NCBI GenBank assembly: GCA_963651445.1
Contig: CAVJPU010000007.1
Coordinates: 33-64,032, forward strand
Source of the DNA: a bacterium
GTDB lineage: Bacteria; Bacillota_I; Bacilli_A; RFN20; CAG-826
Reading direction: 5' to 3'
DNA: 64,000 nucleotides
Both the position numbers and the translations under genes were made by a program. The stretch's first letter is position 1. Every line of letters begins with the position of its first letter. This document shows positions 1-59,506 of the stretch, piece after piece. Below the pieces are notes generated by a model, which was not told where the DNA came from, ran no database searches, and saw only the letters and a program-made list of their open reading frames with translations.

Positions 1-1298
1 ATGACATGGTAATTCTCGACCTCGGTGACATAAAGGTCGATTTTTTCATAGGTGAAGTGATCGCCGACTTCTGGGAATCTGCCGAGTTTGTCGGTAATCC
101 AGCCAGAGACAGTCGCATAGTCATCATCTAACTTCTCATCTTCCAAATCGAAGAAGTCGAAGAAGTCATCCACCGACATCTCGGCACGGACGAGATAGAC
201 GTTGCGTTTCTGACCTTTGACGATGTCATCCGAGACTTTGTCTTGCTCGTCCCACATCTCGCCGACCAATTCTTCGAGTATGTCCTCCAAGGTCAATATG
301 CCTTCGGTTCCGCCGAATTCATCACGAATTAAACAGATGTGGTTCTTATTCTTCTTCATGATGGCCAAAGCGGAGCTGATTTCCATGGTTCTTGGAACCG
401 AAACGATAGGGATGATGTAGTCTTTGATATCAAACTTCTTGCCAGAGACAATGGCCCTAAGAACGGTCTTAGCTTGTATATAACCCACTATTTTGTCCAA
501 TCCACCTTTGCAAACAGGTATACGAGAATGGACAAACGCGTTCTTGTCTTTGATGAAATCCTGGAAGGAATTGTTCAGGTCATAGGCAAAGATCTTGACT
601 CTAGGGGTCATGATCTCATAACAGGAAGTATCTTTGAAATCGATGGAGTTCTGGATGATTTCAGACTGATCTTCGTCGATTAAGCCTTCATCTAAAATCT
701 CATCGACCATGACTTCCAATTCCTCATCGGATGCAACATCTTCTTCTTTGTCTTTCTTATCTACCAAAGGCTTAGCCATTTTCTGGGTGAGCCAGTTGAT
801 CGGCCAAACGAATGGGAAGAAGATGACTTTGTTGATATTCATGAACCAAACGAAAGCTTTCGCCGATTTAACCGGGTTCTTTCTGGCTAAGGTCTTTGGC
901 AAGATTTCGCCGAAGATAAGGATGATGGATATGGACACAATCGAGGTAATCAATGACGAAATGTCATCGGAAGAGAAGACGCCGGCGAAGATTTTCACGC
1001 CGATAACAGCCGCCAAAGAGGAAGCCAAGATGTTAACGAAGTCATTACCGAACAAGATAGTGGCAATGGTGAAGTCGAAGTTGTCGACCAATTTTAAAGC
1101 CGCGGCGGCTTTCTTGTTGCCTTCATCGGCTTCGCGTTTCAAACGGAGGCGATTCGCGGATGAATAAGTGGCATCCGAGAAGCTATACATGAAAGAGAAG
1201 GCGACCAAGATGATGAAGATAACAATGTAGATTGCCAACAAGTAAGTTGGCATCTCAAAGGTATTATCCGCGAAGATATTTAGGAGGTTTCTAATCAT
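1..1298 (-). CDS. CNNM/TlyC-family membrane protein (DUF21 - CBS pair - CorC_HlyC); 3' end cut by the window edge
   Basis: Own minus-strand translation from ATG at 1298 (MIRNLLNIFADN...). It has DUF21-type TM helices (GEILPKTLA), CBS-region motifs (EIMTPRV, LTLEDILEELVGE) and a CorC-like tail (VSGWITDKLGRFPEVGD). It is absent from the ORF track because it runs off the window. It forms an ATGA overlap with the upstream gene. Confidence 0.85.
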   Translation of the reverse strand, partial: MIRNLLNIFADNTFEMPTYLLAIYIVIFIILVAFSFMYSFSDATYSSANRLRLKREADEGNKKAAAALKLVDNFDFTIATILFGNDFVNILASSLAAVIGVKIFAGVFSSDDISSLITSIVSISIILIFGEILPKTLARKNPVKSAKAFVWFMNINKVIFFPFVWPINWLTQKMAKPLVDKKDKEEDVASDEELEVMVDEILDEGLIDEDQSEIIQNSIDFKDTSCYEIMTPRVKIFAYDLNNSFQDFIKDKNAFVHSRIPVCKGGLDKIVGYIQAKTVLRAIVSGKKFDIKDYIIPIVSVPRTMEISSALAIMKKNKNHICLIRDEFGGTEGILTLEDILEELVGEMWDEQDKVSDDIVKGQKRNVYLVRAEMSVDDFFDFFDLEDEKLDDDYATVSGWITDKLGRFPEVGDHFTYEKIDLYVTEVENYHV

Positions 1299-2290
1299 TT
1301 GCTAGCCTCCTTTGGAAGGTCGTAGACCTCATCGATGTCGCCGACTAATTCCTCCAATAAATCTTCCATGGTGACCAAACCTAAAAGCTCGTCTTTTTGT
1401 TTGACGATGGCTAGCTGGGTCTTATGGTTTCTAAAACCGTCCGCCAAGTCGTTAAGGCAGGTCTTAGGAGAGATGACATATGGCTTCTCAACAAAGTTGA
1501 GATAGTTAATTTTATTGTTGTTGATATAGGCCGCTAAGAAGGCTTTGACGATAAGGATGCCAATGATGTTATCCTTCTTTCCATAATATAAAGGAATACG
1601 CGAGAAAGAGGTGTCGCAGATTTTCTGGACCAACTTCTCAGTCGTTAATCCTTTGGTATCAATCGCGAACATCTTGTTTCTGGAAGTAAGGACTTCTTTG
1701 ACCTTCATGTCGCCCCAGTCGATGGAATTCTGGATGATTTCCGACTCGTTTTTCTCCAATAAGCCAGCATCTTCGTTCTGTTCGATGACCGAGACCAAGT
1801 CTTCTTCGGTGAAGTTCGGATTCTTCTTGGTTTTGAAGATTTTGGAAAGCAAAACATCCATTCCTTTAAAGACCATCATCAAAGGCCAGAAGAGGAAATA
1901 GAAGAAAACTAAAGGATAGGCCACGAGCGAGGCGATCTTATTCGGGATTTTGGCCGCGACTTGCTTAGGCAAGGTTTCGCCCAAGAAGTAAACGACGATG
2001 GTGACGACGATAGAGGCAATCAAAGAAGCTACGCCTTCTGGAAGGGTGGTTTTTAAAAAGAGATTGGTGAATAAGACAGAAGCGCCGGTGTTGACGATAT
2101 TGTTGCCGATAAGAATGGCGTTTAACGCCTTATCGAAACGATCGTAAATCCAAAGAACCGTCTTGCTGGTCTTATGACCATCGCGGGCTCCGACGGCAAA
2201 GCGAAAATGATTTAGCCTCTGGAAGGCTGTCTCGCTGGCTGAGAAAAATGCGCTAAAGAAGATAAAAACGAGACCTAGAATTGCACATAT
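1295..2290 (-). CDS. CNNM-family DUF21 - CBS pair protein (no CorC_HlyC tail); start codon unclear
   Basis: Track ORF 1295..2023 (TTG start) stays open in frame up to a stop at 2309-2311. The upstream part encodes the canonical DUF21 N-terminus (ICAILGLVFIFFSAFFSASETAF), yet no ATG/GTG/TTG lies in frame between 2023 and 2308. Confidence 0.8.
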   Translation of the reverse strand: MCAILGLVFIFFSAFFSASETAFQRLNHFRFAVGARDGHKTSKTVLWIYDRFDKALNAILIGNNIVNTGASVLFTNLFLKTTLPEGVASLIASIVVTIVVYFLGETLPKQVAAKIPNKIASLVAYPLVFFYFLFWPLMMVFKGMDVLLSKIFKTKKNPNFTEEDLVSVIEQNEDAGLLEKNESEIIQNSIDWGDMKVKEVLTSRNKMFAIDTKGLTTEKLVQKICDTSFSRIPLYYGKKDNIIGILIVKAFLAAYINNNKINYLNFVEKPYVISPKTCLNDLADGFRNHKTQLAIVKQKDELLGLVTMEDLLEELVGDIDEVYDLPKEASK

Positions 2291-2334
2291 TAAGGGGTCC
2301 GTTTTACATCAACTCGCTTTCTTGAAACGTAAAG

Positions 2335-2363
2335 ATATTACCATAGCTCTTGAGGAATATCAA
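2335..2363 (-). promoter_or_regulatory. sigma70-type promoter for the CNNM gene pair
   Basis: Minus strand reads TTGATA - 17 nt - TAATAT, about 45 nt upstream of the DUF21 N-terminus. Confidence 0.55.
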
Positions 2364-2405
2364 AAAATCCAATGGTTTTATAATGTACACGCATAGCGTG
2401 ACTAA

Positions 2406-3167
2406 TCAATCTTCGTCATCTTTCTTGCCAAGCTGTGGCTCAAAATCTTTTAATGGGGCAACCCAATCGCGTTCGTAGATATCGCCGATGGTGATGTTGT
2501 CTTTCCTACAAGCGTCGGATAAAAGCTGTTTGGCACGTCTTACCGATAAAGGAGATCTTACCTTGAAAGCGCAAGGAATTTCCTTATAGATATGCTTCAA
2601 TCCAGCATCGATAACAGGAATGCCCGAATTGGCGTAAGATTCAGGTTTTAAGGCAAAGTAGCATTTCAAAGAATTGCCAGCAATGGAGATTTTCATATAG
2701 GTTTTAGTATGCAGTCTAAAGGTATCACCCGTATTGGAAAGACGAGATTTTAAGCCATAAGCCAAGGCTTCGGCCTTCAATTGGTTATAACATTCCTTAA
2801 GGGTGTCATCGGCTTCCAGCATCCTGGTTGGGAACGGAATTCGTTCAGGATATTGGGTCTTTTCTTCAGATTCGATGGTGGTGATCTTTTTGTTTTGGCT
2901 GATTACCTTCAAAAACGGTTCGGCTGCCGCATTATCGCCAACTTCGGCCAAAAGTTTGGCCAATTCCTCTTTGAAGATTCTTCTGACATCAGCTTCCGTC
3001 ATCATGTTTTTCTTCATGTTGGCGAGAAGTTCTTCTTGTTCGAGTTCGTGCTCGTATAATTCGCGATAAGAGTTATTGAAGTGCCTCTTGCTCACGTTGT
3101 TGATGGGGACGTCGGAATTGTCTTCTTGTTTTTTTCTGATTGGCATTTTCTTTTTAAAAAGAGACAT
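2406..3167 (-). CDS. hypothetical protein (charged N-terminal half, conserved-looking C-terminal domain)
   Basis: Track ORF 2406..3230. The likely start is ATG 3167 (MSLFKKKMPIRKK), preceded by GGAG. No family recognised. Confidence 0.6.
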   Translation of the reverse strand: MSLFKKKMPIRKKQEDNSDVPINNVSKRHFNNSYRELYEHELEQEELLANMKKNMMTEADVRRIFKEELAKLLAEVGDNAAAEPFLKVISQNKKITTIESEEKTQYPERIPFPTRMLEADDTLKECYNQLKAEALAYGLKSRLSNTGDTFRLHTKTYMKISIAGNSLKCYFALKPESYANSGIPVIDAGLKHIYKEIPCAFKVRSPLSVRRAKQLLSDACRKDNITIGDIYERDWVAPLKDFEPQLGKKDDED

Positions 3168-3291
3168 TGCTACTCCTTGAAATGAAAAGTGTCTTAGCTG
3201 ATAAGTGTATTTTATCCAAAAAAGTGGCAAATAATAAAGAACTAATTGTGAAGATTTTTGGATTTTGAGAACAAAATAAGGCTAAACGCTA

Positions 3292-4908
<1,617 letters not shown>

Positions 4909-5013: not shown

Positions 5014-5089
5014 TGGAGCAGGTGACGGGAATCGGACCCGCGTATCTACCTTGGCAAGGTAGTGTTCTACCATTGAACTACACCTGCGC
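5014..5089 (-). tRNA. tRNA-Gly (anticodon GCC), CCA encoded
   Basis: Hand-folded cloverleaf: acceptor GCGCAGG/CCTGCTC region, anticodon loop TTGCCAA. The T-loop reads TCCGATT, so position 55 is C rather than the usual T. Confidence 0.85.
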
Positions 5090-6902: not shown

Positions 6903-6977
6903 GGCCCTGTGGTCAAGCGGCTAAGACGCAACCCTCTCAAGGTTGAATCCCGGGTTCGATTCCCGGCTGGGTCACCA
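6903..6977 (+). tRNA. tRNA-Glu (anticodon CUC), CCA encoded
   Basis: Cloverleaf closely resembles Gram-positive tRNA-Glu (GGCCC.. TGGTCAAGCGG .. GGGTCACCA). Anticodon loop CTCTCAA. One U-U mismatch in the acceptor stem. Confidence 0.88.
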
Positions 6978-7103: not shown

Positions 7104-9206
7104 TTATTTCTTGATGCTTAAGACTTTCGATCCATCACGGTTCACGTTGTATGAGCTACCGGAAATAAATTGATCAGACCAGAAGATATAGGCTTTATAG
7201 GTGCTTTCTAAGGACCAGGCCACGATCTCCGTATTTGAAGAATCGGTAATGGTGTAGGAACCTGCGCTTAATGAAGTCGAGGTATTATAGATGGAACCCG
7301 ACACGGTTTCGCCGATTTGGCCGCAAGCCACAAGGGTTCCGCCAGTAACGGAAATCGTGGAATCGACATCTAAGGTTCCACCGCTCATGGACTGACCACC
7401 ATTGGAGCCGTTTCTAAGAATGGCTACACCACCAGTCATAACGAAGTTGCCGTTGGAATCGATGGTATCCGTATCGCCGCTAGGAACGGTGACATCGGTT
7501 CTACCGCCGGTGATTTTGACTAATGGGGTAGAAGAACCACTGTCCGAAGCATTGATGCCATCATCCGAAGCATACAAGGTGGATTCCCCACCATCGATGA
7601 TAACTTGGTTACCTTCGAAGGCTTCATAAGATTTGGTGACTTTGATAGTCCCGCCGGTGACATTCAAATCTTGATCGGCTTTGACGCCGTCATCATCGGA
7701 GGCGATGGTGATGGTTCCGCCGGAGATGTTGATGTTGCCCTTCCCATTGGCGTTCGTGGACTCCAAGACATTGTCATTGTTAGAATGGAGGCCATCGTCC
7801 CTGGAAGTGATATTGATGGTTCCGCCGGAGATGTTGATTTCATTGTCGGCTTTGATGCCTTTGCAAGAATAATCCAAGCCATCGGAACCGCTGGAAGTAG
7901 CAAAGGAACTCCAGCCGTTGCAGATCATGCTCGTTCCGTAAATCTGCGAGACCTGATAGGTATCACCGCTTGTTGGAATGGTCGTATTGGATGTGGTTTT
8001 GGCCACATAGTTCTCGGATTGTCCCTGAGTTTGGGTGGAATTATAGGCGTAGAACACGACGTTGGTCATATTGGACGGCTTTTCGACTTTGTAATAGTAG
8101 TAAGTCGAATTCCCACCGCCTTGGCCTCCACGGCCTCCGCCAGGGCCACCGCCTCCTGGACCGCCTTGGTTGGATTCAACCGCCTTATAGAATTCGAGGT
8201 TGGACCAAGCCGAAGCGCCGGAAGTATTGCTGAAATAAGCGGAATACTTGTAGTTTTTCGAATAAAGAGAATACGGCAAGCGGAGATAGAGAAGACTTTG
8301 GCTGGTGGTAGTCGCATCGCCGGTATAAGAAGAATACTTATCGGTGAAGATATTCACTTCGCCACCGGAGATAACTACGTCGGAAGCCGAATCGATTCCG
8401 TCTTGGGCGGCATAGCAATTAAGCACCGAGCCTTCCGTGATGGTGATAACGCCACGTTGCTCATTGTTTTTGTTGGTGTCGGTCGCGTTGCTCTTTAAGG
8501 CATCGCCGCCGGAAGAAACAGCCACGATATTTGCCGATTCGATATCAATTGAGTCATTGCCCTTAATCGCGTTGTTAACGGCTTTGGTTTGCAAGGTGAG
8601 ATTCTTGATTTCCAAATCATCCTTGCCATGAATGCCGTTGTTGTAGTTGGAGATAACGCTTAAGGTGCCTTTGCCTTTGATGGTAAGGTCGCATTCAGAA
8701 TGAATGGCCGCGCCACCTAAAGTCGAATTCTCATCGGTATCGACTTCTCTTAAGTCGTAGACTTTGTTCTCAGTGCCTTTTTTAGCCGAAATATCGACTT
8801 CATCGGCATCGATGATATAGATAGGCGAATTGGCAGAGTTGCTAATGGTGACCCCGTTCAAATCGATTTCCACCGCCGCGTCAGGGGCGTTGACCGCCAG
8901 CTGACCTTCGATCAATTTGCCGGTGCAGGAATAGCTTCCAGCCGCCGTAATTGTGTAGGTGTTTGAGTCTTTATCGTATGTGTAGCCGTCAACGACCTCG
9001 GTTGTGATAGCAAAATCCGAGGTTTCCCCACTTGAAATATCGACATCCGAATCAAAGCCCCAATCAATGGAGGTTGAGGAAGTGTCTGTTGGCGTAGTGG
9101 AAGAACCGTCGTTTCCAGACTCGCTAGAATTATTGCCGAAGCTACAACCCGCTAAGAGAAACGAGGCGCTTAAAGTTAATAAGAGAGATATTTGTTTATT
9201 GTTCAT
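7104..9206 (-). CDS. surface lipoprotein, Cthe_2159-like carbohydrate-binding beta-helix family (PF14262-like)
   Basis: Lipobox LLAGC. Family-typical N-terminus TYTITAAGSYSCTGKL..LNGVTISNSANSPIYI and repeated DG(I/L)xS..D..I.GG..I turns. Start chosen at ATG 9206 after AAGAGGA; the track ORF extends to 9284. A Gly-rich insert (GGPGGGGPGGGRGGQGGG) lies mid-protein. Confidence 0.8.
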   Translation of the reverse strand: MNNKQISLLLTLSASFLLAGCSFGNNSSESGNDGSSTTPTDTSSTSIDWGFDSDVDISSGETSDFAITTEVVDGYTYDKDSNTYTITAAGSYSCTGKLIEGQLAVNAPDAAVEIDLNGVTISNSANSPIYIIDADEVDISAKKGTENKVYDLREVDTDENSTLGGAAIHSECDLTIKGKGTLSVISNYNNGIHGKDDLEIKNLTLQTKAVNNAIKGNDSIDIESANIVAVSSGGDALKSNATDTNKNNEQRGVITITEGSVLNCYAAQDGIDSASDVVISGGEVNIFTDKYSSYTGDATTTSQSLLYLRLPYSLYSKNYKYSAYFSNTSGASAWSNLEFYKAVESNQGGPGGGGPGGGRGGQGGGNSTYYYYKVEKPSNMTNVVFYAYNSTQTQGQSENYVAKTTSNTTIPTSGDTYQVSQIYGTSMICNGWSSFATSSGSDGLDYSCKGIKADNEINISGGTINITSRDDGLHSNNDNVLESTNANGKGNINISGGTITIASDDDGVKADQDLNVTGGTIKVTKSYEAFEGNQVIIDGGESTLYASDDGINASDSGSSTPLVKITGGRTDVTVPSGDTDTIDSNGNFVMTGGVAILRNGSNGGQSMSGGTLDVDSTISVTGGTLVACGQIGETVSGSIYNTSTSLSAGSYTITDSSNTEIVAWSLESTYKAYIFWSDQFISGSSYNVNRDGSKVLSIKK

Positions 9207-10287
9207 GATTGTCATCCTCTTTCTTTTTATCGACGCTATCATCGTTCGATTTAGAGGAATTGCAATCTTTATTTTCATCTTCAATCATTTTTTCGAACTC
9301 TTTGAGCTGTCTAGCCACTTCAACCTGGTCATCTTCGCTTAAAACGTCCTTGCATTCAGGGTCGCTGAAGACTTCCTTGGATTTGTTATAAAGGAACTTG
9401 ATCATCATCATGCCGTAAGGTTCTTGCATCAAATGCAAGGCATGGGCGTAATATCCGTAGCATAACGATAATAAGACAACCGCTAGACCAACGCCGAAGA
9501 TGACTTGCTGGGACATCGTGATATCAGGAATCAAGCCTGATAGGAAATATCCGCCTACCCCACTTAGAATTTCGATGATAAGTAACGGATAAAGCATCCC
9601 GTAATAGACTTTGAAGAACTGTTTCCAATGGGCGCGGATGGAATGGGTATAAAGGCTATTTAATTGTCTTTGGTTCAAGTCATCGGAAGGAGCGGCTGTT
9701 CTAACCAAAGCATTCAATCCATAAACGCCGAAGGAATGGATGAAGATAAGGAAGAAGACGACGAATTCAGTCATTGAGCAGACGCTTAGCATCTTAGTCA
9801 ATGGAGATTCCACCGATAATAATTTGGTCAATCCATCGGTGTTACCATTCGAAATATAGAAATACACCTGGTTCATCAAAGTGGACAATTCGGCGTTATT
9901 GACCGAAACGACATAATAATAGATGAATCCGGTCACCACGCCCGATAACACGCCGACCAACAGGCTGATGAAATAATTCCTAATCAAACGATAGGAACCA
10001 AAGACTACGCCGCGGTAATACATGCCAAATGAAGCAAAGAACAAGGACGGAGCCGATACTTCATTGGCTTTCTTATCGGCAATCATGATCATTGAGGCAT
10101 AGGCCCATGGAATTAAGATGAAGGGGATAAGAAGATATAGGAGGCTACTCATAAAGAGAGCGGCCGCAAAGGTTGCTAAGCTAACCAAGGCCAAGTTCAA
10201 AGAGAAGACGAAGGTGCTCCTTTTATTTTCCTTCATGTCTTCGATGACGGCTTTGGGATTAAATTTTCTCTTCTTTATTTCTGGCAT
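9196..10287 (-). CDS. polytopic membrane protein with acidic/Lys-rich C-terminal tail, function unknown
   Basis: 363-aa ORF with several hydrophobic helices. The tail reads ...EDENKDCNSSKSNDDSVDKKKEDDNHEQ. Start uncertain: no clear SD, and it overlaps the upstream gene by 29 nt. Confidence 0.65.
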   Translation of the reverse strand: MPEIKKRKFNPKAVIEDMKENKRSTFVFSLNLALVSLATFAAALFMSSLLYLLIPFILIPWAYASMIMIADKKANEVSAPSLFFASFGMYYRGVVFGSYRLIRNYFISLLVGVLSGVVTGFIYYYVVSVNNAELSTLMNQVYFYISNGNTDGLTKLLSVESPLTKMLSVCSMTEFVVFFLIFIHSFGVYGLNALVRTAAPSDDLNQRQLNSLYTHSIRAHWKQFFKVYYGMLYPLLIIEILSGVGGYFLSGLIPDITMSQQVIFGVGLAVVLLSLCYGYYAHALHLMQEPYGMMMIKFLYNKSKEVFSDPECKDVLSEDDQVEVARQLKEFEKMIEDENKDCNSSKSNDDSVDKKKEDDNHEQ

Positions 10288-23780: not shown

Positions 23781-24227
23781 TTATTCTATGAACTCATCAA
23801 ATAGGAAGCCTACGAAATCTCCCGGAAGGAAGTGCCATTCGTCATTTTTAAAGCATACAGCCCCTACTGTAATTCCGTATCCTATGTATTTGATGATTCG
23901 AGCTTCGCTTTTCGTGGTTATTGTAATTTCTAGGAAATCCCCCCATTTTCTGTCTTCATCGAAATCCATCAATTCTTCTTTGTATGGCATGTTTTGAACA
24001 CCGATTAAATTTTCTTTTATGGCTTCGGTGTTGTTGGTTGTTTTTGTCTCGTCCGTGTGCTCGCGATAATCGTTTGCGTTGCCGATATAATGTGCAGAAT
24101 ACAGCAGCACGTCTTCTGGCTCTATGTTCAAATTGATCCTCGGCCAATCCCTGGTATCATGACCGCAAGAAATCAGAGACAACCCCAAGATAGGTGTTGC
24201 GATCAATCCTAAGAACTTGTTTTTCAT
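23781..24227 (-). CDS. small lipoprotein, unknown function
   Basis: Signal peptide plus lipobox LSLISC. 148 aa. Confidence 0.7.
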   Translation of the reverse strand: MKNKFLGLIATPILGLSLISCGHDTRDWPRINLNIEPEDVLLYSAHYIGNANDYREHTDETKTTNNTEAIKENLIGVQNMPYKEELMDFDEDRKWGDFLEITITTKSEARIIKYIGYGITVGAVCFKNDEWHFLPGDFVGFLFDEFIE

Positions 24228-24396: not shown

Positions 24397-27300
24397 TTAG
24401 GCCTGTTTGGTGATGGTTTGGAAGTCATATGGTCCATCGCCGTCATCGAAGGAACCACTCATAGTCCCAGTGCTGGTCTTATAAGTGAGTTCGTAGTCAT
24501 AGTCACCGACCGTGAATTTAATGGTATAGCCAGTGCTGGTTTCGGTCACGGTGTAGGTAAAGGCCGTTCCGCCATAAGTGCCGGTCTTATCGGCATTAAG
24601 AACTAAAGTAACAGTCGCATAAGCGCTCTTGCAGCTCCAAGTGCCAACATAAGCAGGGGTTTCCTCTTCGGCCTGTTTAGTCATCTTTGGATTGTAAACA
24701 TTATCGCCATAATCACCAGAGAGGTGGAGGGAAAGGGTCCCATCGTCATTGAAAGTGAAAGTATTTTCGTCTCCGCTGTCATCGAAATTGCCAAAATCGC
24801 TTATGGTGCCCTTCTTGGTGGACTCATCATAAGTCCAGGTAAAGTTGTAAGTGTTGGTGCCGTCATTCCAAGTGCCAGTGCCATTGTCGCTTAAGACCAT
24901 GACGTTGTTGTTGGAATCTTTCCAAGTGCCGATTAAGGCCGCTTGGCCTGTAGGGGTGGTATCTCCGCCTTCGTCTCCGCCGCTGGATTCCTTGGTGACG
25001 GAATCGAAGACGGTTTCTTCGTAATCATACTCATAAGAGCCAGACATGGTACCATCGGCAGTTTTGTACTTAAGGGTGACTTCAGTATCGCCGACGGTGA
25101 AAGTTATGGTGTAGCCAGTGGTGGTCGCTTCGACAGAATAAGTAGAGGCGGTACCGTTGTATTCGCAGCTGCCATCGGCGTTCAAGACGATGGTGAAAGA
25201 ACTGGTTCCGCGCTTGGCAATCCAAGTACCTAACGCTTCAGCCGGAAGAGTGACTGGGGTTGGGGCGACCTTCTCGGTGAGAGTGGTGCCGGAAACGGTA
25301 TAGACAGTTCCGCCGATGGTGACTTCGCTGCCTTCGCTCATATCACCGGTAATGGTGACAAGCTTGCCATCTTTGATGGCGTAGTTCTTCGAAGCAGTGG
25401 AATAGACCTTAACTTTGCTATCAGAAGAAGAATAGGTCTTATCGATGGCTTCTCTGGCACCGAAATAATCGGAGTTATAGAAGACATCGTTAGTGGCATC
25501 ATAATTCAAACCATCAGCCATCAATCTGGCCGGGACTCTGATGTTGAAGGTGCCGTCAGCCAATTTGGTGAAACCACCGGTCCATTCAGTGGTGGAGGTA
25601 GTGCTGTATCCAGAAGCCGTTCCGTCTTCTTTCAAGATAACATAGTTGCCATTGCTGAAGTAATAGGTTCCTAAGAAGGATTCATTGGAATAATCAGGGA
25701 CAACGAAGGTGGTAGAACTCTTGGTTCCGGTGTAGGCATAATCGTAGTCATTGATATCATAGCCAGTGATCTTGCCGTTTTCTAACTTGAAGATTTCGCC
25801 TTCGAAATCACCGCCCTCGCCAATGAAGATATAGGTTCCATCGAAGGTATAGCTGTATTTGTAAATCTCATAGTACCTATTCTGCCAATAGAAGGTATCT
25901 TCGGTGAAGTGCCAAGTTCCAGTGATCGATGAACCGATAGTATAGTTCCAAGTTCCGAGCAAAACGCTCAAATCACCATAAGAGGCATAGAGGGTGGTAT
26001 CAGCGACGAATGGGGTGTACCAGGTATAAGCCTGTTTGCCTTCTTTGTCGTAGAACATACCGACATAAGAATAGCCGGATCTCTTGAATTCTTTGCTAGT
26101 GATGGCCGAGACGGCGGAGTGGTCATAAACGCCGTTGGAGGCGGTGATACTTTCTCCGGCACCGCCTTCGTAGTTAGCGTCCATCTTGACGTTGACTTTC
26201 TTATCGGAGCCAGCGTATTCGCCTAAGACGACCTTGCCATCTTTATAGGACCAGCTGGAGGATAATCCAGCGGCGGAAATGGCGGCTTCGCCCTTCTCGG
26301 CGGCTTCGCCATCAACGCCAGAGACATCGCTGCCCTTGGTGTCGTTCTTGGCATAGTTGGCATAATTGACGGTGCCTAAAGTATCGTCATCGTCATCATA
26401 ACCATTCTTATAGGAATAGCCGATAACCGAGCCGGCATAGGACTTGTAGACGGTGCTAGAAGAGCCAGCGGCGGAAATCTCGCTGAAGCCAGCGAAGTTA
26501 TGCAAGACCGCGGACTCATAATAGCCCTGACCGACGATACCACCAGCATAAGCGCCATCGGTATCGGTAGCCTTAAGGTATTCGCCTTCGGCGTAGCAGT
26601 CGATAACTGAGGTGTAATAGGATAACGAAGCGGTGATGCCACCGACAGCGGTACCACCGGTGATGTTTCCGGAATAGTAGCAAGAAGCGATATATTCGAT
26701 GCCGATGGATTGGCTGCTTCTCATGGTACCAAGACCACCGGAGATGCCACCGACGGCGTTGCTGGTGTCAGCCGCATCGGACATATCGGAATTGATATTA
26801 ACAATGGCTGAAGAATTCCTGACTCCGACCGAATAGTTGCCACCGGCATATAAGATGCCAGCGATGCCACCGACGAACAAATAAGAAGTGGAATTCTGGG
26901 CGGAAGTTAAATCGATGGAACCTTCCACCGAGACGTTCTCGATGCTGGTGTTATAACCATAACCGACAAGACCGCCTACGAAGATTTGGGATTTGGCACC
27001 CATTGGGGCTAAGTCATAATCAATGGTGATGCTTAAGTCGCTGACATAAGCGCCTTGGGCATAGCCGAATAAGCCATAAGCGGTGATGCCTTTATCGAAC
27101 TTGTCAAAGATAACGCCGCTAATCTTGTGGCCGTTGCCATCAAACGATCCATTGAATGGAACGCTGGATGAGCCGACCGGGGAGATTTCCGTACCGCTTA
27201 AATCGATATCGGCTCCCAATTTGTAATAGACGGTTTCGCTTGGGGCGGCAGTCAAAGCGTTGTAGGCTGCCACGAAATCGCCATATTGCTTAGCGCTGGA

Positions 27301-27435
27301 AATGACATATGGATCGGCTTTGGTGCCAGAACCGGTCATCTCATCGACGCTAGATGAACCTCCATCAATAGAATCTGAGGAGTCTGAATTATCGGAAGAC
27401 CCCCCCCCGAAATTGAGGAGTTGTCCTCTCCGCAA
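24397..27435 (-). CDS. large surface protein with GLUG-motif repeats and C-terminal lipocalin-like repeats; main reading frame, disconnected from its signal peptide
   Basis: 1012-aa ORF. It has repeated GG(L/I)(V/A)G..... modules (GGLVGYGYNTSIENV, VGGIAGILYAG, VGGITASL, AGGIVGQGY). Three GTW-initiated ~85-aa modules lie at the C-terminus. The track start (TTG 27435) has no SD or signal peptide. Confidence 0.85.
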   Translation of the reverse strand: MRRGQLLNFGGGSSDNSDSSDSIDGGSSSVDEMTGSGTKADPYVISSAKQYGDFVAAYNALTAAPSETVYYKLGADIDLSGTEISPVGSSSVPFNGSFDGNGHKISGVIFDKFDKGITAYGLFGYAQGAYVSDLSITIDYDLAPMGAKSQIFVGGLVGYGYNTSIENVSVEGSIDLTSAQNSTSYLFVGGIAGILYAGGNYSVGVRNSSAIVNINSDMSDAADTSNAVGGISGGLGTMRSSQSIGIEYIASCYYSGNITGGTAVGGITASLSYYTSVIDCYAEGEYLKATDTDGAYAGGIVGQGYYESAVLHNFAGFSEISAAGSSSTVYKSYAGSVIGYSYKNGYDDDDDTLGTVNYANYAKNDTKGSDVSGVDGEAAEKGEAAISAAGLSSSWSYKDGKVVLGEYAGSDKKVNVKMDANYEGGAGESITASNGVYDHSAVSAITSKEFKRSGYSYVGMFYDKEGKQAYTWYTPFVADTTLYASYGDLSVLLGTWNYTIGSSITGTWHFTEDTFYWQNRYYEIYKYSYTFDGTYIFIGEGGDFEGEIFKLENGKITGYDINDYDYAYTGTKSSTTFVVPDYSNESFLGTYYFSNGNYVILKEDGTASGYSTTSTTEWTGGFTKLADGTFNIRVPARLMADGLNYDATNDVFYNSDYFGAREAIDKTYSSSDSKVKVYSTASKNYAIKDGKLVTITGDMSEGSEVTIGGTVYTVSGTTLTEKVAPTPVTLPAEALGTWIAKRGTSSFTIVLNADGSCEYNGTASTYSVEATTTGYTITFTVGDTEVTLKYKTADGTMSGSYEYDYEETVFDSVTKESSGGDEGGDTTPTGQAALIGTWKDSNNNVMVLSDNGTGTWNDGTNTYNFTWTYDESTKKGTISDFGNFDDSGDENTFTFNDDGTLSLHLSGDYGDNVYNPKMTKQAEEETPAYVGTWSCKSAYATVTLVLNADKTGTYGGTAFTYTVTETSTGYTIKFTVGDYDYELTYKTSTGTMSGSFDDGDGPYDFQTITKQA

Positions 27436-27500
27436 GCACTTAAAAAACCTACGAGTGCCAAAGCGGCGAGAGGGAATAAGACCTTTTTAGTTTTAAACAT
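27336..27500 (-). CDS. 54-codon ORF encoding the lipoprotein signal peptide of the GLUG protein, out of frame with the main ORF
   Basis: GGAGGAAAACT-ATG(27500) then MFKTKKVLFPLAALALVGFLSAC GEDNSSIS-GGG. After the G-run the frame gives nonsense and stops at 27336. G10 or G7 would fuse it in frame to ...GGGSSDNSDSS of the 1012-aa ORF. Confidence 0.8.
   Translation of the reverse strand: MFKTKKVLFPLAALALVGFLSACGEDNSSISGGGLPIIQTPQILLMEVHLASMR
27400..27408 (-). repeat. G9 homopolymer (C9 on plus strand) inside the 5' end of the GLUG lipoprotein gene
   Basis: Counted directly: C at 27400 plus eight C at 27401-27408. It lies exactly at the junction between the signal-peptide frame and the main ORF frame. 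Confidence 0.95.
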
Positions 27501-27502
27501 AG

Positions 27503-27545
27503 TTTTCCTCCGTCTTAACGAGCCGCATTATAGCGAGGAGGAAAA
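27503..27545 (-). promoter_or_regulatory. 9-bp perfect inverted repeat able to sequester the SD of the GLUG lipoprotein gene; TATAAT in the loop
   Basis: On the mRNA strand, TTTTCCTCC (27545-27537) is followed by 25 nt and then GGAGGAAAA (27511-27503, the SD). The loop contains TATAAT (27532-27527). Confidence 0.4.
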
Positions 27546-27773
27546 TTATTTAAACAATTAATTAATTAAATTACTTTTTTGTTTTGCTTTATAACTTTTC
27601 GAAAGCCTTTTTTGGCTGTTTTGGATGCTTTTAATAGAAACGTGTGCCAAAGAAATTGGATTATCTGGAGCATTTAAGCAAATACGAAAAAAAACGAAAA
27701 ATGCAATGTTTTACTGTATTTGTAATAAATAATTGATCTTTCTTTGACGGAGAATCTCCAAGCTACTTTATTT

Positions 27774-27824: not shown

Positions 27825-28871
27825 ATGACAAGAAAATTTGACTATTCAAAACTCTTAGATAGAAAGTTCGATGCAGAGACGATCAATTACATCGGTCTTA
27901 TTCACGAGTGCAAAGGCAGACAACAGCTCTATCTCGAACAAAGAAAAGAAGATTTGGACAAGCTCGTTGAGATATCTAAAGTTCAAAGCACCGAAGCCTC
28001 CAACGAAATCGAAGGTATTGTAACAACCAATCAGAGATTGGCGATGCTGATGAAAGATAAAACAACCCCAAGGAATAGAGATGAAAAGGAAATTAACGGT
28101 TATCGCTACGCCTTGAATTTGATACACGAGAATTTCAACTATATCCCAATTAGGCCCAATTTTCTTCTCCAACTTCACAAAGAAATGTATCAATTTCTCG
28201 ACGTGAGGTTCGGTGGCAAATTCAAAGATACACCAAACGAAATAGATGCAACGTACCCCAACGGAGAGAAGGTAGTTTTGTTCAAACCCCTCGAGCCGTA
28301 TGAAACTCCGGAAGCTATCGAAAAAATATGCGAAGAATATAATAAAGCTATCAAAAAATACAATATCGATCCTTTGATTGTTATTCCCGTCTTCATTCAT
28401 GACTTTCTTTGCATCCACCCCTTCAACGATGGTAATGGGAGAATGTCCAGATTGCTTACCACACTTCTTCTTTATCAAAACGGTTATGTTGTTGGTAGAT
28501 ACATTTCTTTAGAAAAGAAGATCCAAATTTCTAAGAATGATTACTATGCCGCGTTGCAAGAAAGTTCTTCCGGCTGGATGGAGTCTAATAACGACGATTC
28601 TCCTTTTATAAAATACCTGCTCGGAACAATTCTTTCCGCCTATAGAGATTTTGAAAACAGAGTAAATATGGTCGGCGTTAAACAAAGTGCTAGAGAAATG
28701 GTTGAAAAAGCGGTTAGATCCAAAATCGGCAAATTCACCAAAAACGACATTATGGAAATGTGCCCTGAAATCGGAAGAGGTTCGGTTGAACAATCTTTAA
28801 AAGCCTTGTGTGATGAAGGCATAATCAAAAAGGAAGGTAGTGCCAGAGCCACTTTCTATCACTTGGTATAA
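27825..28871 (+). CDS. fic: Fic family protein (AMPylase-type) with N-terminal inhibitory-helix motif and C-terminal winged-helix region
   Basis: Fic motif HPFNDGNGRMSR. N-terminal SNEIEG fits the [ST]xxxE[GN] auto-inhibition motif. RBS AAAGGAGG. The gene and its flanks are visibly more AT-rich than neighbouring genes. Confidence 0.9.
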   Translation: MTRKFDYSKLLDRKFDAETINYIGLIHECKGRQQLYLEQRKEDLDKLVEISKVQSTEASNEIEGIVTTNQRLAMLMKDKTTPRNRDEKEINGYRYALNLIHENFNYIPIRPNFLLQLHKEMYQFLDVRFGGKFKDTPNEIDATYPNGEKVVLFKPLEPYETPEAIEKICEEYNKAIKKYNIDPLIVIPVFIHDFLCIHPFNDGNGRMSRLLTTLLLYQNGYVVGRYISLEKKIQISKNDYYAALQESSSGWMESNNDDSPFIKYLLGTILSAYRDFENRVNMVGVKQSAREMVEKAVRSKIGKFTKNDIMEMCPEIGRGSVEQSLKALCDEGIIKKEGSARATFYHLV

Positions 28872-28987: not shown

Positions 28988-29061
28988 TGGAGCGCGTGGC
29001 GGGAATCGAACCCGTGTGGCCAGCTTGGGAAGCTAGAGTTCTACCATTGAACTACACGCGC
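28988..29061 (-). tRNA. tRNA-Gly (anticodon CCC)
   Basis: Acceptor GCGCGTG/CACGCGC, anticodon loop TTCCCAA, T-loop TTCGATT, CCA encoded. Confidence 0.88.
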
Positions 29062-29094
29062 AGCAAAAAGATTATATACAAATCCGTCCATAAA

Positions 29095-29121
29095 AACAAA
29101 AAAACCGAGTGCTGACCTCGG
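29095..29121 (-). terminator. terminator after tRNA-Val
   Basis: ccgag-N7-ctcgg, followed by a T-run on the minus strand. Confidence 0.5.
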
Positions 29122-29139
29122 CCTTCTGTTGTAATAGAG

Positions 29140-29215
29140 TGGTGGGTGCTGCGAGGATCGAACTCACGACCTCCTGTACGTCAAACAGGTGCTCTCCCAG
29201 CTGAGCTAAACACCC
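29140..29215 (-). tRNA. tRNA-Val (anticodon GAC)
   Basis: GGGTGTTTAGCTCAGCTGGGAGAGC..., anticodon loop TTGACGT, CCA encoded. Confidence 0.9.
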
Positions 29216-29248
29216 ACTTAGCTGGACACGCTTTTCAGCGCGTTCATT

Positions 29249-29277
29249 ATTATATGAGCGAGCCTATCGGCACGCAA
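29249..29277 (-). promoter_or_regulatory. promoter for tRNA-Val
   Basis: Minus strand reads TTGCGT - 17 nt - TATAAT. Confidence 0.55.
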
Positions 29278-29300
29278 GCAGAAATTAACCGAATAAAGAG

Positions 29301-29326
29301 AAAAGAAAAAGCCCATTGTCTTGGGC
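29301..29326 (-). terminator. terminator after tRNA-Thr
   Basis: gccca-ttgtct-tgggc, followed by a T-run on the minus strand. Confidence 0.55.
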
Positions 29327-29344
29327 TTCATCACTTTTTATTAA

Positions 29345-29420
29345 TGGTGCCGACTAGCGGAATCGAACCACCAACCTACTGATTACGATTCAGTTGCTCT
29401 GCCAATTGAGCTAAGTCGGC
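29345..29420 (-). tRNA. tRNA-Thr (anticodon CGU)
   Basis: Acceptor GCCGACT/AGTCGGC, anticodon loop ATCGTAA, CCA encoded. Confidence 0.88.
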
Positions 29421-57062: not shown

Positions 57063-57192
57063 TATGTTTTTTTTCCTAAACAAATAATAAGGGATATATA
57101 GAATTTTTATCAAGAGAATAGATATTCACTTTTTGGCATACATAAAATAAGTCCGACAAAGTCGGGCTCATTTTCGTTTTATTTTGTTGTGT

Positions 57193-59278: not shown

Positions 59279-59365
59279 TGGTGCCCAAGGCGGGACTTGA
59301 ACCCGCACGGATTATGCATCCAGCGGATTTTGAGTCCGCCGCGTCTACCATTCCACCACTCGGGC
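59279..59365 (-). tRNA. tRNA-Leu (anticodon CAA), class II with long variable arm
   Basis: GCCCGAGTGGTGGAATGGTAGACGCGGCGGACTCAAAATCCGC..., CCA encoded. Confidence 0.88.
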
Positions 59366-59428
59366 ACTGAATGTGCGAAAAGTATTATAGGGATTAAGGC
59401 TTCCTTATTCAAGAGAATGAATAAAGGA

Positions 59429-59506
59429 TGGCGTGCCTGGGTAGATTCGAACTGCCGGCCTCAAGCTTCGGGGGCTTGCGCTCTGATCCAACTGAGCTAC
59501 AGGCAC
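59429..59506 (-). tRNA. tRNA-Arg (anticodon CCG) with unusual C33 and a C-A mismatch in the T-stem
   Basis: Acceptor GTGCCTG/CAGGCAC. The anticodon stem CAAGC/GCTTG encloses loop CCCCGAA. T-arm GGCAG-TTCGAAT-CTACC. Confidence 0.7.

Follow-up and report, generated by a model that had tools for sequence, protein, structure and literature searches.

A G tract between a lipoprotein signal peptide and a GLUG-type protein body as a probable ON/OFF switch in an uncultured, Mollicutes-like member of the Bacilli

A surface lipoprotein gene interrupted by a run of nine G residues was analysed in a 64,000-nt stretch of contig CAVJPU010000007.1 (assembly GCA_963651445.1, positions 33 to 64,032), referred to below as the window. 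The gene, with a product of about 1034 amino acids (aa), is most probably a slippage-driven ON/OFF contingency locus, that is, a locus of translational phase variation. Its anatomy, the length polymorphism of the tract between strains and the intact, constrained state of the body in OFF alleles are directly supported, as is the recurrence of this design in another clade and in another gene. Slipped-strand mispairing during replication would add or remove G in the part of the tract-containing gene that codes for a tether. With G7 or G10 a ribosome starting at the Shine-Dalgarno (SD) sequence and ATG would read into the body, and the protein would be exported and lipid-anchored (ON). With G8 or G9 translation would stop after 36 or 54 codons, leaving the body with neither a ribosome-binding site nor an export signal (OFF); the G9 allele of the window would represent the OFF state. 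The two ON lengths, which differ by 3 nt, should be functionally equivalent because the tract codes for two or three glycines in a flexible tether. High-frequency replication slippage, reversibility within a population, and surface exposure with host or ligand interaction are what we infer for the locus.

Anatomy of the split gene

The original prediction, made from the letters of the window, had placed a G9 tract between a strong SD and ATG with a lipobox signal on one side and a 1012-aa GLUG open reading frame (ORF) on the other. Direct reading confirmed a minus-strand run of nine G at 27408..27400, which appears as C9 when the plus strand is read; it separates the ORF that carries promoter, SD and lipoprotein signal from a body of 1000 codons (Table 1). 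Around the start the minus strand reads …GGAGGAAAACT ATG TTT AAA ACT AAA AAG …, and from the lipobox into the tract TTA AGT GCT TGC GGA GAG GAC AAC TCC TCA ATT TCG GGG GGG GGT CTT. The signal peptide MFKTKKVLFPLAALALVGFLSAC, translated from the ATG at 27500, has a positively charged n-region, a hydrophobic core and the lipobox LSAC. Arranged as MFKTKK-VLFPLAALALVGF-LSAC, it conforms in sequence to a bacterial lipoprotein signal (lipobox pattern [LVI][ASTVI][GAS]C after a positive n-region and a hydrophobic h-region), which is kept in all orthologs. The product is predicted to be lipid-modified as a substrate of Lgt and LspA. The GGAGGA sequence was unchanged in 5/5 aligned alleles, including an ortholog with 71% identity, and the sigma-70-like element at 27554..27527 would serve as the promoter.

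Read from the SD in the G9 state, the gene yields 54 codons, made up of the signal peptide, 8 linker residues, GGG and 20 out-of-frame residues, and ends at a stop at 27338..27336; the early end of this frame had been foreseen. The large ORF lies in another frame and lacks both an SD and a signal peptide. It had been listed as 1012 aa from a TTG at 27435; the actual body is 1000 codons long, from 27399 to the stop at 24397, and a tract of G7 or G10 is needed to bring it into frame with the signal peptide. In-silico resizing of the tract gave one continuous lipoprotein of 1033 aa with G7 and of 1034 aa with G10, as expected from the original prediction, while G8, G9, G11 and G12 led to a stop after 36–55 codons. 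Public annotation of the contig contains only a 980-aa product (P0001), which begins MTGSGT at an internal Met (ATG 27339..27337). Direct reading found no SD ahead of this ATG, and P0001, annotated from there, is without its export signal because of G9.

Table 1. Features of the split gene in the window, and tract alleles of its relatives and of a neighbouring lipoprotein gene
Feature	Location	Strand	Tract or sequence	Reading or basis
Putative sigma-70-like promoter ahead of signal-peptide ORF	27527..27554	-	TTTAAA, 16-nt spacer, TATAAT	10/12 consensus matches
Shine-Dalgarno sequence, 5 nt 5' of ATG	27506..27511	-	GGAGGA	Direct reading
Lipoprotein signal peptide, lipobox LSAC, Cys codon 27434..27432	27432..27500	-	MFKTKKVLFPLAALALVGFLSAC	Reading and translation
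54-codon ORF read from SD in G9 state	27336..27500	-		Frame translation and in-silico resizing
Homopolymer (candidate switch), start 8 codons past lipobox Cys, within S/G/D-rich linker	27400..27408	-	G9	Direct reading
Surface-protein body, 1000 open codons and stop	24397..27399	-		Open to natural stop
Rest of disordered linker (fused-protein residues ~35-51) and conserved entry to folded domain	27246..27399	-	(E/D)(M/I)TGSGT..DPY	Model and alignment
GLUG-type β-helix domain, fused-protein residues ~56-365	26407..27336	-		Pfam, model, Foldseek
C-terminal all-β domains, diverged repeated ~85-aa modules	24400..26406	-	…GTW…DG.GT.NG..FT.TYD…	Model secondary structure and translation
Clade A (window species group, 87-96% aa identity)	window		G9	OFF
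Clade A	L007		G8	OFF
Clade A	L020		G8	OFF
Clade A	L001		G7	ON
71% orthologs	L002, L006		GGGAGGA, no tract	In frame
Clade B (~51% aa identity)	L003, L021, L022		G8	OFF
Clade B	L009, L023, L024		G7	ON
Other ortholog	L014		C7 in same linker	In frame
Other orthologs, twelve alleles	L004, L005, L008, L010-L013, L015-L019		No tract	In frame
Neighbouring gene tract	L009:2271-2277, L024:3292-3298		C7	In frame (ON), open 1103 codons
Neighbouring gene tract	L021:274-279		C6	Out of frame (OFF)
Neighbouring gene tract	L022:273-280 (plus strand; gene minus, ATG ~360), L023:3269-3276		C8	Out of frame (OFF)

The tract stands out against the composition of the window (44.8% GC), in which G/C runs are avoided. 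G9 is the only G/C run longer than 6 nt in the 64 kb, the next longest being a single 6-mer. From the run-length decay of the window itself (a factor of 0.12 per added base), about 0.003 G/C runs of at least 9 nt would be expected. In the frame of the body the tract is read as three GGG codons. GGG is the rarest glycine codon in the 49 genes of the window (6.6% of Gly codons), and among the 114 Gly-Gly dipeptides of these genes two are coded by GGG-GGG pairs, both in this tract. The same glycines are coded by GGA GGA in the 71% ortholog. Given its excess over chance, the rarity of GGG and this synonymous spelling, the homopolymer seems to be maintained at the DNA level instead of following from the protein sequence, and the tract has the look of a selected feature more than of an accident.

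A 148-aa lipoprotein gene lies on the same strand at 23781-24227 (-), 170 nt 3' of the GLUG gene, and the window's other G/C run of 6 (23939-23944) is found in the middle of it. No terminator-like site was detected between the two genes, and the 148-aa gene could be co-transcribed with the GLUG gene and so be open to polarity in the OFF state.

Tract length, reading frame and selection in relatives

The family was collected by a protein search with the reconstructed product, and the DNA of 24 alleles was recovered and analysed uniformly. Full-length members are all lipoproteins of one layout, consisting of signal, lipobox, S/G/D-rich linker and (E/D)(M/I)TGSGT..DPY, and every ortholog with a recovered 5' end has an equivalent signal and lipobox. 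The contigs of the relatives bear names of the kind that short-read assemblers give (MEGAHIT-style k141_/k119_; SPAdes 'Spades_'/'NODE_'), and the assemblies were made from different samples.

A comparison of tract length in relatives, proposed with the original prediction as a check, gave G9, G8, G8 and G7 in clade A and G7 or G8 in clade B, a result which favours a phase-variation switch. In clade A the DNA of promoter, SD and signal peptide, including TATAAT and its flanks, is identical in ON and OFF alleles. The clade B tract starts 5 codons past the lipobox. At the protein level the cluster members P0121 and P0127 are ON, while P0122, P0130 and P0132 start at alternative codons and have G8 in their DNA. 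Among alleles with recovered 5' ends a frameshift was present in 6/10 that bear a tract and in 0/14 that do not (Fisher p = 0.0016), an association which alone cannot separate biology from artefact, since sequencing error also puts frameshifts at homopolymers. Of the marks of a contingency locus, those that can be read from sequence were found: a mutable tract in 5' coding sequence, variation of its length between strains with kept flanks, and frame toggling of a selected gene. Scans of JGI metagenomes with a protein pattern or with a 26-nt DNA pattern from the signal-peptide region yielded no further alleles.

Two candidates were set aside at this stage. P0009 and P0010, which start at the internal MTGSGT, were taken at first for OFF alleles; their DNA shows the signal peptide in frame and no tract, and their starts (L004:240-3308, L005:19-3078) reflect the choice of the gene caller and not a switch. 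An apparent split gene in L022 (1648-2783), considered as a sign of poor assembly, proved to be a masked run of N. The ortholog L014 carries its C7 run at L014:572-578 (…NTPPSSD…), 14 codons past the lipobox in the disordered linker; this single allele may represent a convergent gain of a mutable tract. With GGAGGTGGA in its place the tract would be phase-locked.

A second tract was found in an unrelated gene. In clade B the GLUG gene is adjacent to a divergently placed lipoprotein gene of about 1100 aa with no Pfam domain, whose product begins MKKNK(L/F)ATMLA(I/V)PFAVLALT(G/S)C DG(T/S)VT…. It has a poly-C tract 7 codons past the lipobox, and this tract also occurs in in-frame and out-of-frame lengths. 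The states of the GLUG gene and of this neighbour combine freely: ON/ON in L009 and L024, ON/OFF in L023, and OFF/OFF in L021 and L022. A census of the window and the loci together (about 273 kb) also speaks for a recurrent design: 15/16 G/C runs of at least 7 nt lie just 3' of a lipobox.

Comparison of near-identical strains located the changes at the tracts. Over 4323 nt, 9 mismatches separate L001 (G7) from L007 (G8), and over 728 codons the two differ at 7 sites, with indels only at the tract and at one intergenic base. Between L021 and L022 (99.3% identical over 5970 nt) the one real indel falls at the tract of the second gene, and between L003 (G8) and L009 (G7), at a synonymous divergence (dS) of 0.03, no coding indel was found outside the tract. 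Thus in strain pairs of 99.3-99.75% identity coding indels occur only at homopolymer tracts, and G7 and G8 are found in contigs that are 99.75% identical. On relationships based on dS, clade A requires a minimum of two length changes, clade B of one, and the neighbouring gene of two. These comparisons indicate that tract length changes much faster than substitutions accumulate.

Size variation was observed besides ON/OFF variation. In clade B a C-terminal module of 264 nt (88 aa) forms a 98%-identical tandem repeat of 1.8 copies (L022:5752-6233); L021 has one module fewer than L022 although the two are 99.3% identical (985 vs 1073 codons), and cluster members range from 990 to 1101 aa. In the window copy the modules are diverged, and there is no tandem repeat at the DNA level.

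The bodies of OFF alleles were open for 985-1073 codons to the natural stop, or in L007 for 728 codons to the end of the contig, and no OFF allele had a further stop or frameshift in about 1000 codons. The ratio of nonsynonymous to synonymous divergence (dN/dS) was 0.044-0.189 over all pairs and 0.07-0.14 for the window body against its relatives. For OFF-OFF pairs at dS 0.28-0.42 it was 0.136 (window-L020), 0.074 (window-L007) and 0.044 (L007-L020). These ratios indicate that the OFF alleles are under purifying selection and are not decaying pseudogenes. The possibility that the gene is a plain pseudogene, inactivated by a frameshift in this lineage and heading to decay, is extremely improbable. 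It would account for a body that cannot be translated from the only SD and ATG and whose internal-start product lacks an export signal, but it is contradicted by 1000 further codons free of stops and frameshifts, by the low dN/dS of OFF alleles, by full conservation of promoter, SD and signal peptide, and by near-identical strains in opposite states. For a pseudogene the original prediction had named a G9 fixed in relatives together with further disabling mutations; the relatives showed intact OFF bodies with dN/dS of 0.04-0.19.

Several points weigh against a phase-variation switch. Consensus sequences of assemblies are all that was compared, and it is heterogeneity within a population and reversibility that define phase variation. 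No G10 allele was found among the alleles compared, every ON allele being G7. The consensus sequences of metagenome-assembled genomes (MAGs) can mix strains. The census of G/C runs is biased towards the GLUG gene, which was the point from which its loci were collected; even so, about 200 kb of flanking DNA adds only one other such run. Should the window come from long reads assembled without correction, the true tract could be G10, miscalled as G9.

This last point leads to the alternative of sequencing or assembly error, in which G9 is a miscall in the consensus and stands for a true G10 or G7 in an ordinary, unbroken lipoprotein gene. Homopolymers are the classic site of indel miscalls, the sequencing platform of the window was not traced, G9 is one base off an in-frame G10, the body is fully intact as if the gene were really ON, and the coverage of two related OFF contigs, as given in their names, is low at about 4.7x and 6x, which also counts against a switch. 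Nevertheless the alternative is unlikely. The window is 87% coding with no split genes, and its A/T runs of 8-9 nt lie outside translated sequence (intergenic, with one in a 5' leader). Housekeeping genes (PyrG, GltX, FeoB, ZnuABC) are intact. With its other genes unbroken, a generally indel-prone assembly is improbable. Out-of-frame lengths occur in five other independent assemblies of short-read type, in two clades and in the second gene, and a 2-nt difference (C6 vs C8) separates contigs that are 99.3% identical. So many short-read consensus errors at runs of 6-9 nt would be extraordinary. Even if the length in the window were wrong, the rare codons, the fixed position and the recurrence argue for a maintained mutable tract.

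Recoding was weighed as a further alternative. Either -1 ribosomal frameshifting on G_GGG_GGG or slippage of RNA polymerase would turn the apparent OFF state into a low or regulated level of full-length product. G9 does form a slippery X_XXY_YYZ heptamer in the frame of the signal peptide, and a -1 shift there enters the frame of the body. Slippage-prone runs can also give some in-frame mRNA. In Bifidobacterium breve the original GenBank annotation of tract-bearing genes considered re-framing at the tract, although the paper on them credits replication slippage (PMC9187656). Recoding is nonetheless very unlikely as an explanation. Programmed -1 frameshifting was not indicated: the heptamer is present only in the G9 allele, no stable stimulatory RNA structure was found 3' of the tract (z = -0.54), and tract length is not conserved. 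A G8 allele would need a +1 shift and ON alleles none, and tract-less orthologs are simply in frame. At most, recoding would make an OFF state at the DNA level leaky.

The switched protein and its genomic setting

That the body is a GLUG protein, as had been predicted, was supported by fold comparison, whereas the Pfam match (PF07581) scored 20.5 bits, which is the cut-off itself. An AlphaFold model built on an 18-sequence family alignment had a mean predicted local distance difference test score (pLDDT) of 82, with most of the β-helix at 85-96. Residues 1-51, which comprise the signal and the linker with the tract-encoded glycines 32-34, were below 50 and modelled as disordered; the remainder was all-β. 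At the entry to the folded domain the invariant alignment columns are T56, G57, G59, T60, D63, P64 and Y65. For residues ~56-365 Foldseek returned, with probability 1.0, 3n6z (B. ovatus BACOVA_03286, 'putative IgA1 protease') and 6xja/7uvl, the N-terminal domain of the S. pneumoniae IgA1 protease. A PDB sequence search with the family profile gave no match, leaving fold comparison alone informative, and a literature search on GLUG/PF07581 returned only unrelated uses of the word.

No Peptidase_M26_C match was found with Pfam, and no HExxH motif occurs in the 1034 residues; the protein was therefore not classed as an M26 IgA1-specific metalloprotease, though it has the β-helix domain. It shares with the GLUG / Peptidase_M26_N β-helix proteins (3n6z, 6xja) the fold of residues ~56-365 and the GLUG motif. 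It differs from them in having no M26 catalytic domain or HExxH, in being a lipoprotein instead of LPXTG- or SLH-anchored, and in its other C-terminal β-modules. On sequence and model the product is best described as a putative lipid-anchored, tethered GLUG β-helix surface protein. Its exposure is predicted, which would fit the surface or host-interacting character of contingency-locus products, and a binding or adhesin-like role with host or ligand contact is suggested.

PyrG of the window has relatives at 86-95% identity, and the nearest ones that bear a name, at 63-67%, are from MAGs labelled Bacilli bacterium, Candidatus Enteromonas sp. and Mycoplasmatota bacterium. One window protein matches a Mycoplasma-type cysteine-peptidase model, and the window codes for at least 7 lipobox proteins. 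The source is thus an uncultured bacterium of the Bacilli, Mollicutes-like and known from metagenome assemblies, and the analogy with Mollicutes drawn in the original prediction suits it. The ortholog-bearing MAGs (L007-L019) are labelled Alistipes shahii, Azospirillum sp., Prevotellaceae, Bacteroidales, Lachnospiraceae, Oscillospiraceae and Staphylococcaceae; these labels are mutually incompatible and probably wrong. L002, whose 5'-region protein sequence equals that of L006, has the downstream synteny of the window (GtrA, ZnuABC).

A Fic-family gene (C-terminal domain DIP2311-like or Fic-like) is the conserved upstream neighbour of the GLUG gene in both clades (window 27825-28871 (+), L001:352-1242, L020:190-966, L021-L024 ~545-4550). 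In L001 and L020 an AbiEii-type toxin gene pair lies between the Fic and GLUG genes; it is absent from the window. Seven tRNA genes were located at 28991-29420 (-), 59282-59506 (-), 5017-5087 (-) and 6903-6974 (+), three of them clustered just beyond the Fic gene; an Rfam scan of the window returned tRNAs only. At 7104-9284 (-) the window codes for a 726-aa protein with four Cthe_2159 carbohydrate-binding β-helix repeats (PF14262, E = 4e-70) and no homopolymer tract, putatively another large surface protein.

An A8 run at 57067-57074 (-), examined as an intragenic run, was found on reading to be part of a leader, where it is preceded by an SD-like AGG and followed by the ATG (57062) that starts an intact lipoprotein-like gene (MKLKLSILALVTGFSFC…, 811 aa). 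The 811-aa product has a weak match to the Mycoplasma cysteine-peptidase model. A change in the length of A8 would alter the SD-ATG spacing, and the run could be a second switch, acting on expression level.

A wider proposal is offered tentatively, as possible but on balance doubtful: these uncultured Mollicutes-like Bacilli may possess a lineage-wide 'post-lipobox phasome' to which the tract belongs. G/C homopolymers would have evolved repeatedly 5-14 codons past the lipid-modified Cys, in the disordered tether of unrelated large lipoprotein genes. The proposal draws on three observations, made in genomes that otherwise purge G/C runs: the GLUG gene has a G tract in two clades, L014 has C7, and the neighbouring gene has C6-C8. 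Within such a phasome G9 could act as a leaky third level through -1 slippage on G_GGG_GGG. If the proposal is true, independent and combinatorial ON/OFF surface coats would exist in bacteria not known as pathogens, a case relevant to the debate on multi-locus phase variation outside pathogens (PMC11868660).

Comparison with known systems

If the GLUG gene is a phase-variable locus, an ON/OFF switch has been documented here from assemblies alone, through alleles in two clades and independently in a second gene. Annotation pipelines truncate or split such genes, and for such MAGs pseudogene counts and pangenome presence/absence calls would be wrong at these loci. From metagenomic reads, tract length could reveal in situ how selection acts on a surface antigen.

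A poly-A frameshift near the 5' end is said to have been described by Zhang & Wise in 1997 and Theiss & Wise in 1997 for the Vaa adhesin of M. hominis and the P78 lipoprotein of M. fermentans. Vaa and P78 share with the present gene the ON/OFF control of a surface lipoprotein by a homopolymer frameshift in 5' coding sequence, in related wall-less or Mollicutes-type bacteria. The Mycoplasma tracts, however, are poly-A in AT-rich genomes, whereas here poly-G/C is found in a genome of 45% GC which otherwise avoids G/C runs, and the proteins are unrelated. The best-known Mycoplasma systems use other mechanisms, namely promoter poly-A in Vlp and recombinase shufflons in Vpma and Vsa. Several Mycoplasma lipoproteins combine their states, according to the work of Rosengarten & Wise as listed in a review (PMC11868660). 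The same review raises whether multi-locus phase variation is confined to pathogens, and the present locus is an added data point on that question.

Loci of the Neisseria pilC type and the present gene both have poly-G in or near the signal-peptide region and translational ON/OFF control of a surface protein. In Neisseria pilC the poly-G lies in the region coding for the signal peptide. The Neisseria, Campylobacter and Bordetella loci belong to Gram-negative pathogens with tracts often of 8-13 nt or more, while here the lineage is one of uncultured Bacilli and the tract has a stereotyped position 5-14 codons past the lipobox Cys. Several such poly-G/C contingency loci per genome make up a 'phasome', as in Neisseria and Bordetella (PMC5953494, PMC1891110). 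A literature search combining RF39 with phase variation returned nothing specific to this lineage.

Among documented cases the pilin switch of B. breve UCC2003 comes closest; in it, slippage during replication of an intragenic G tract controls the sortase-dependent pilin genes bbr_0113 and bbr_1889 (PMC9187656). In the pilin genes and in the present gene a Sec signal and a surface-protein body are encoded by two ORFs with the G tract between them, SD and signal peptide are missing from the downstream ORF, and the sequenced genome is OFF. B. breve is a gut commensal, and its tract lengths of 8-10 vary between strains. Its cargo, however, is an LPXTG pilin in an actinobacterium, whereas here a lipobox-anchored GLUG β-helix protein is found in Mollicutes-like Bacilli. 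Slippage in B. breve was measured by Maximum Depth Sequencing and was enriched in vivo (PMC9187656), while here it is deduced from differences between strains only. The mechanism is thus a classical one, known from Bifidobacterium pilins, Mycoplasma and Neisseria; of note here are its setting in an uncultured lineage of Mollicutes-like Bacilli, the conserved and convergent placement of tracts past the lipobox, and the combinatorial states of two loci.

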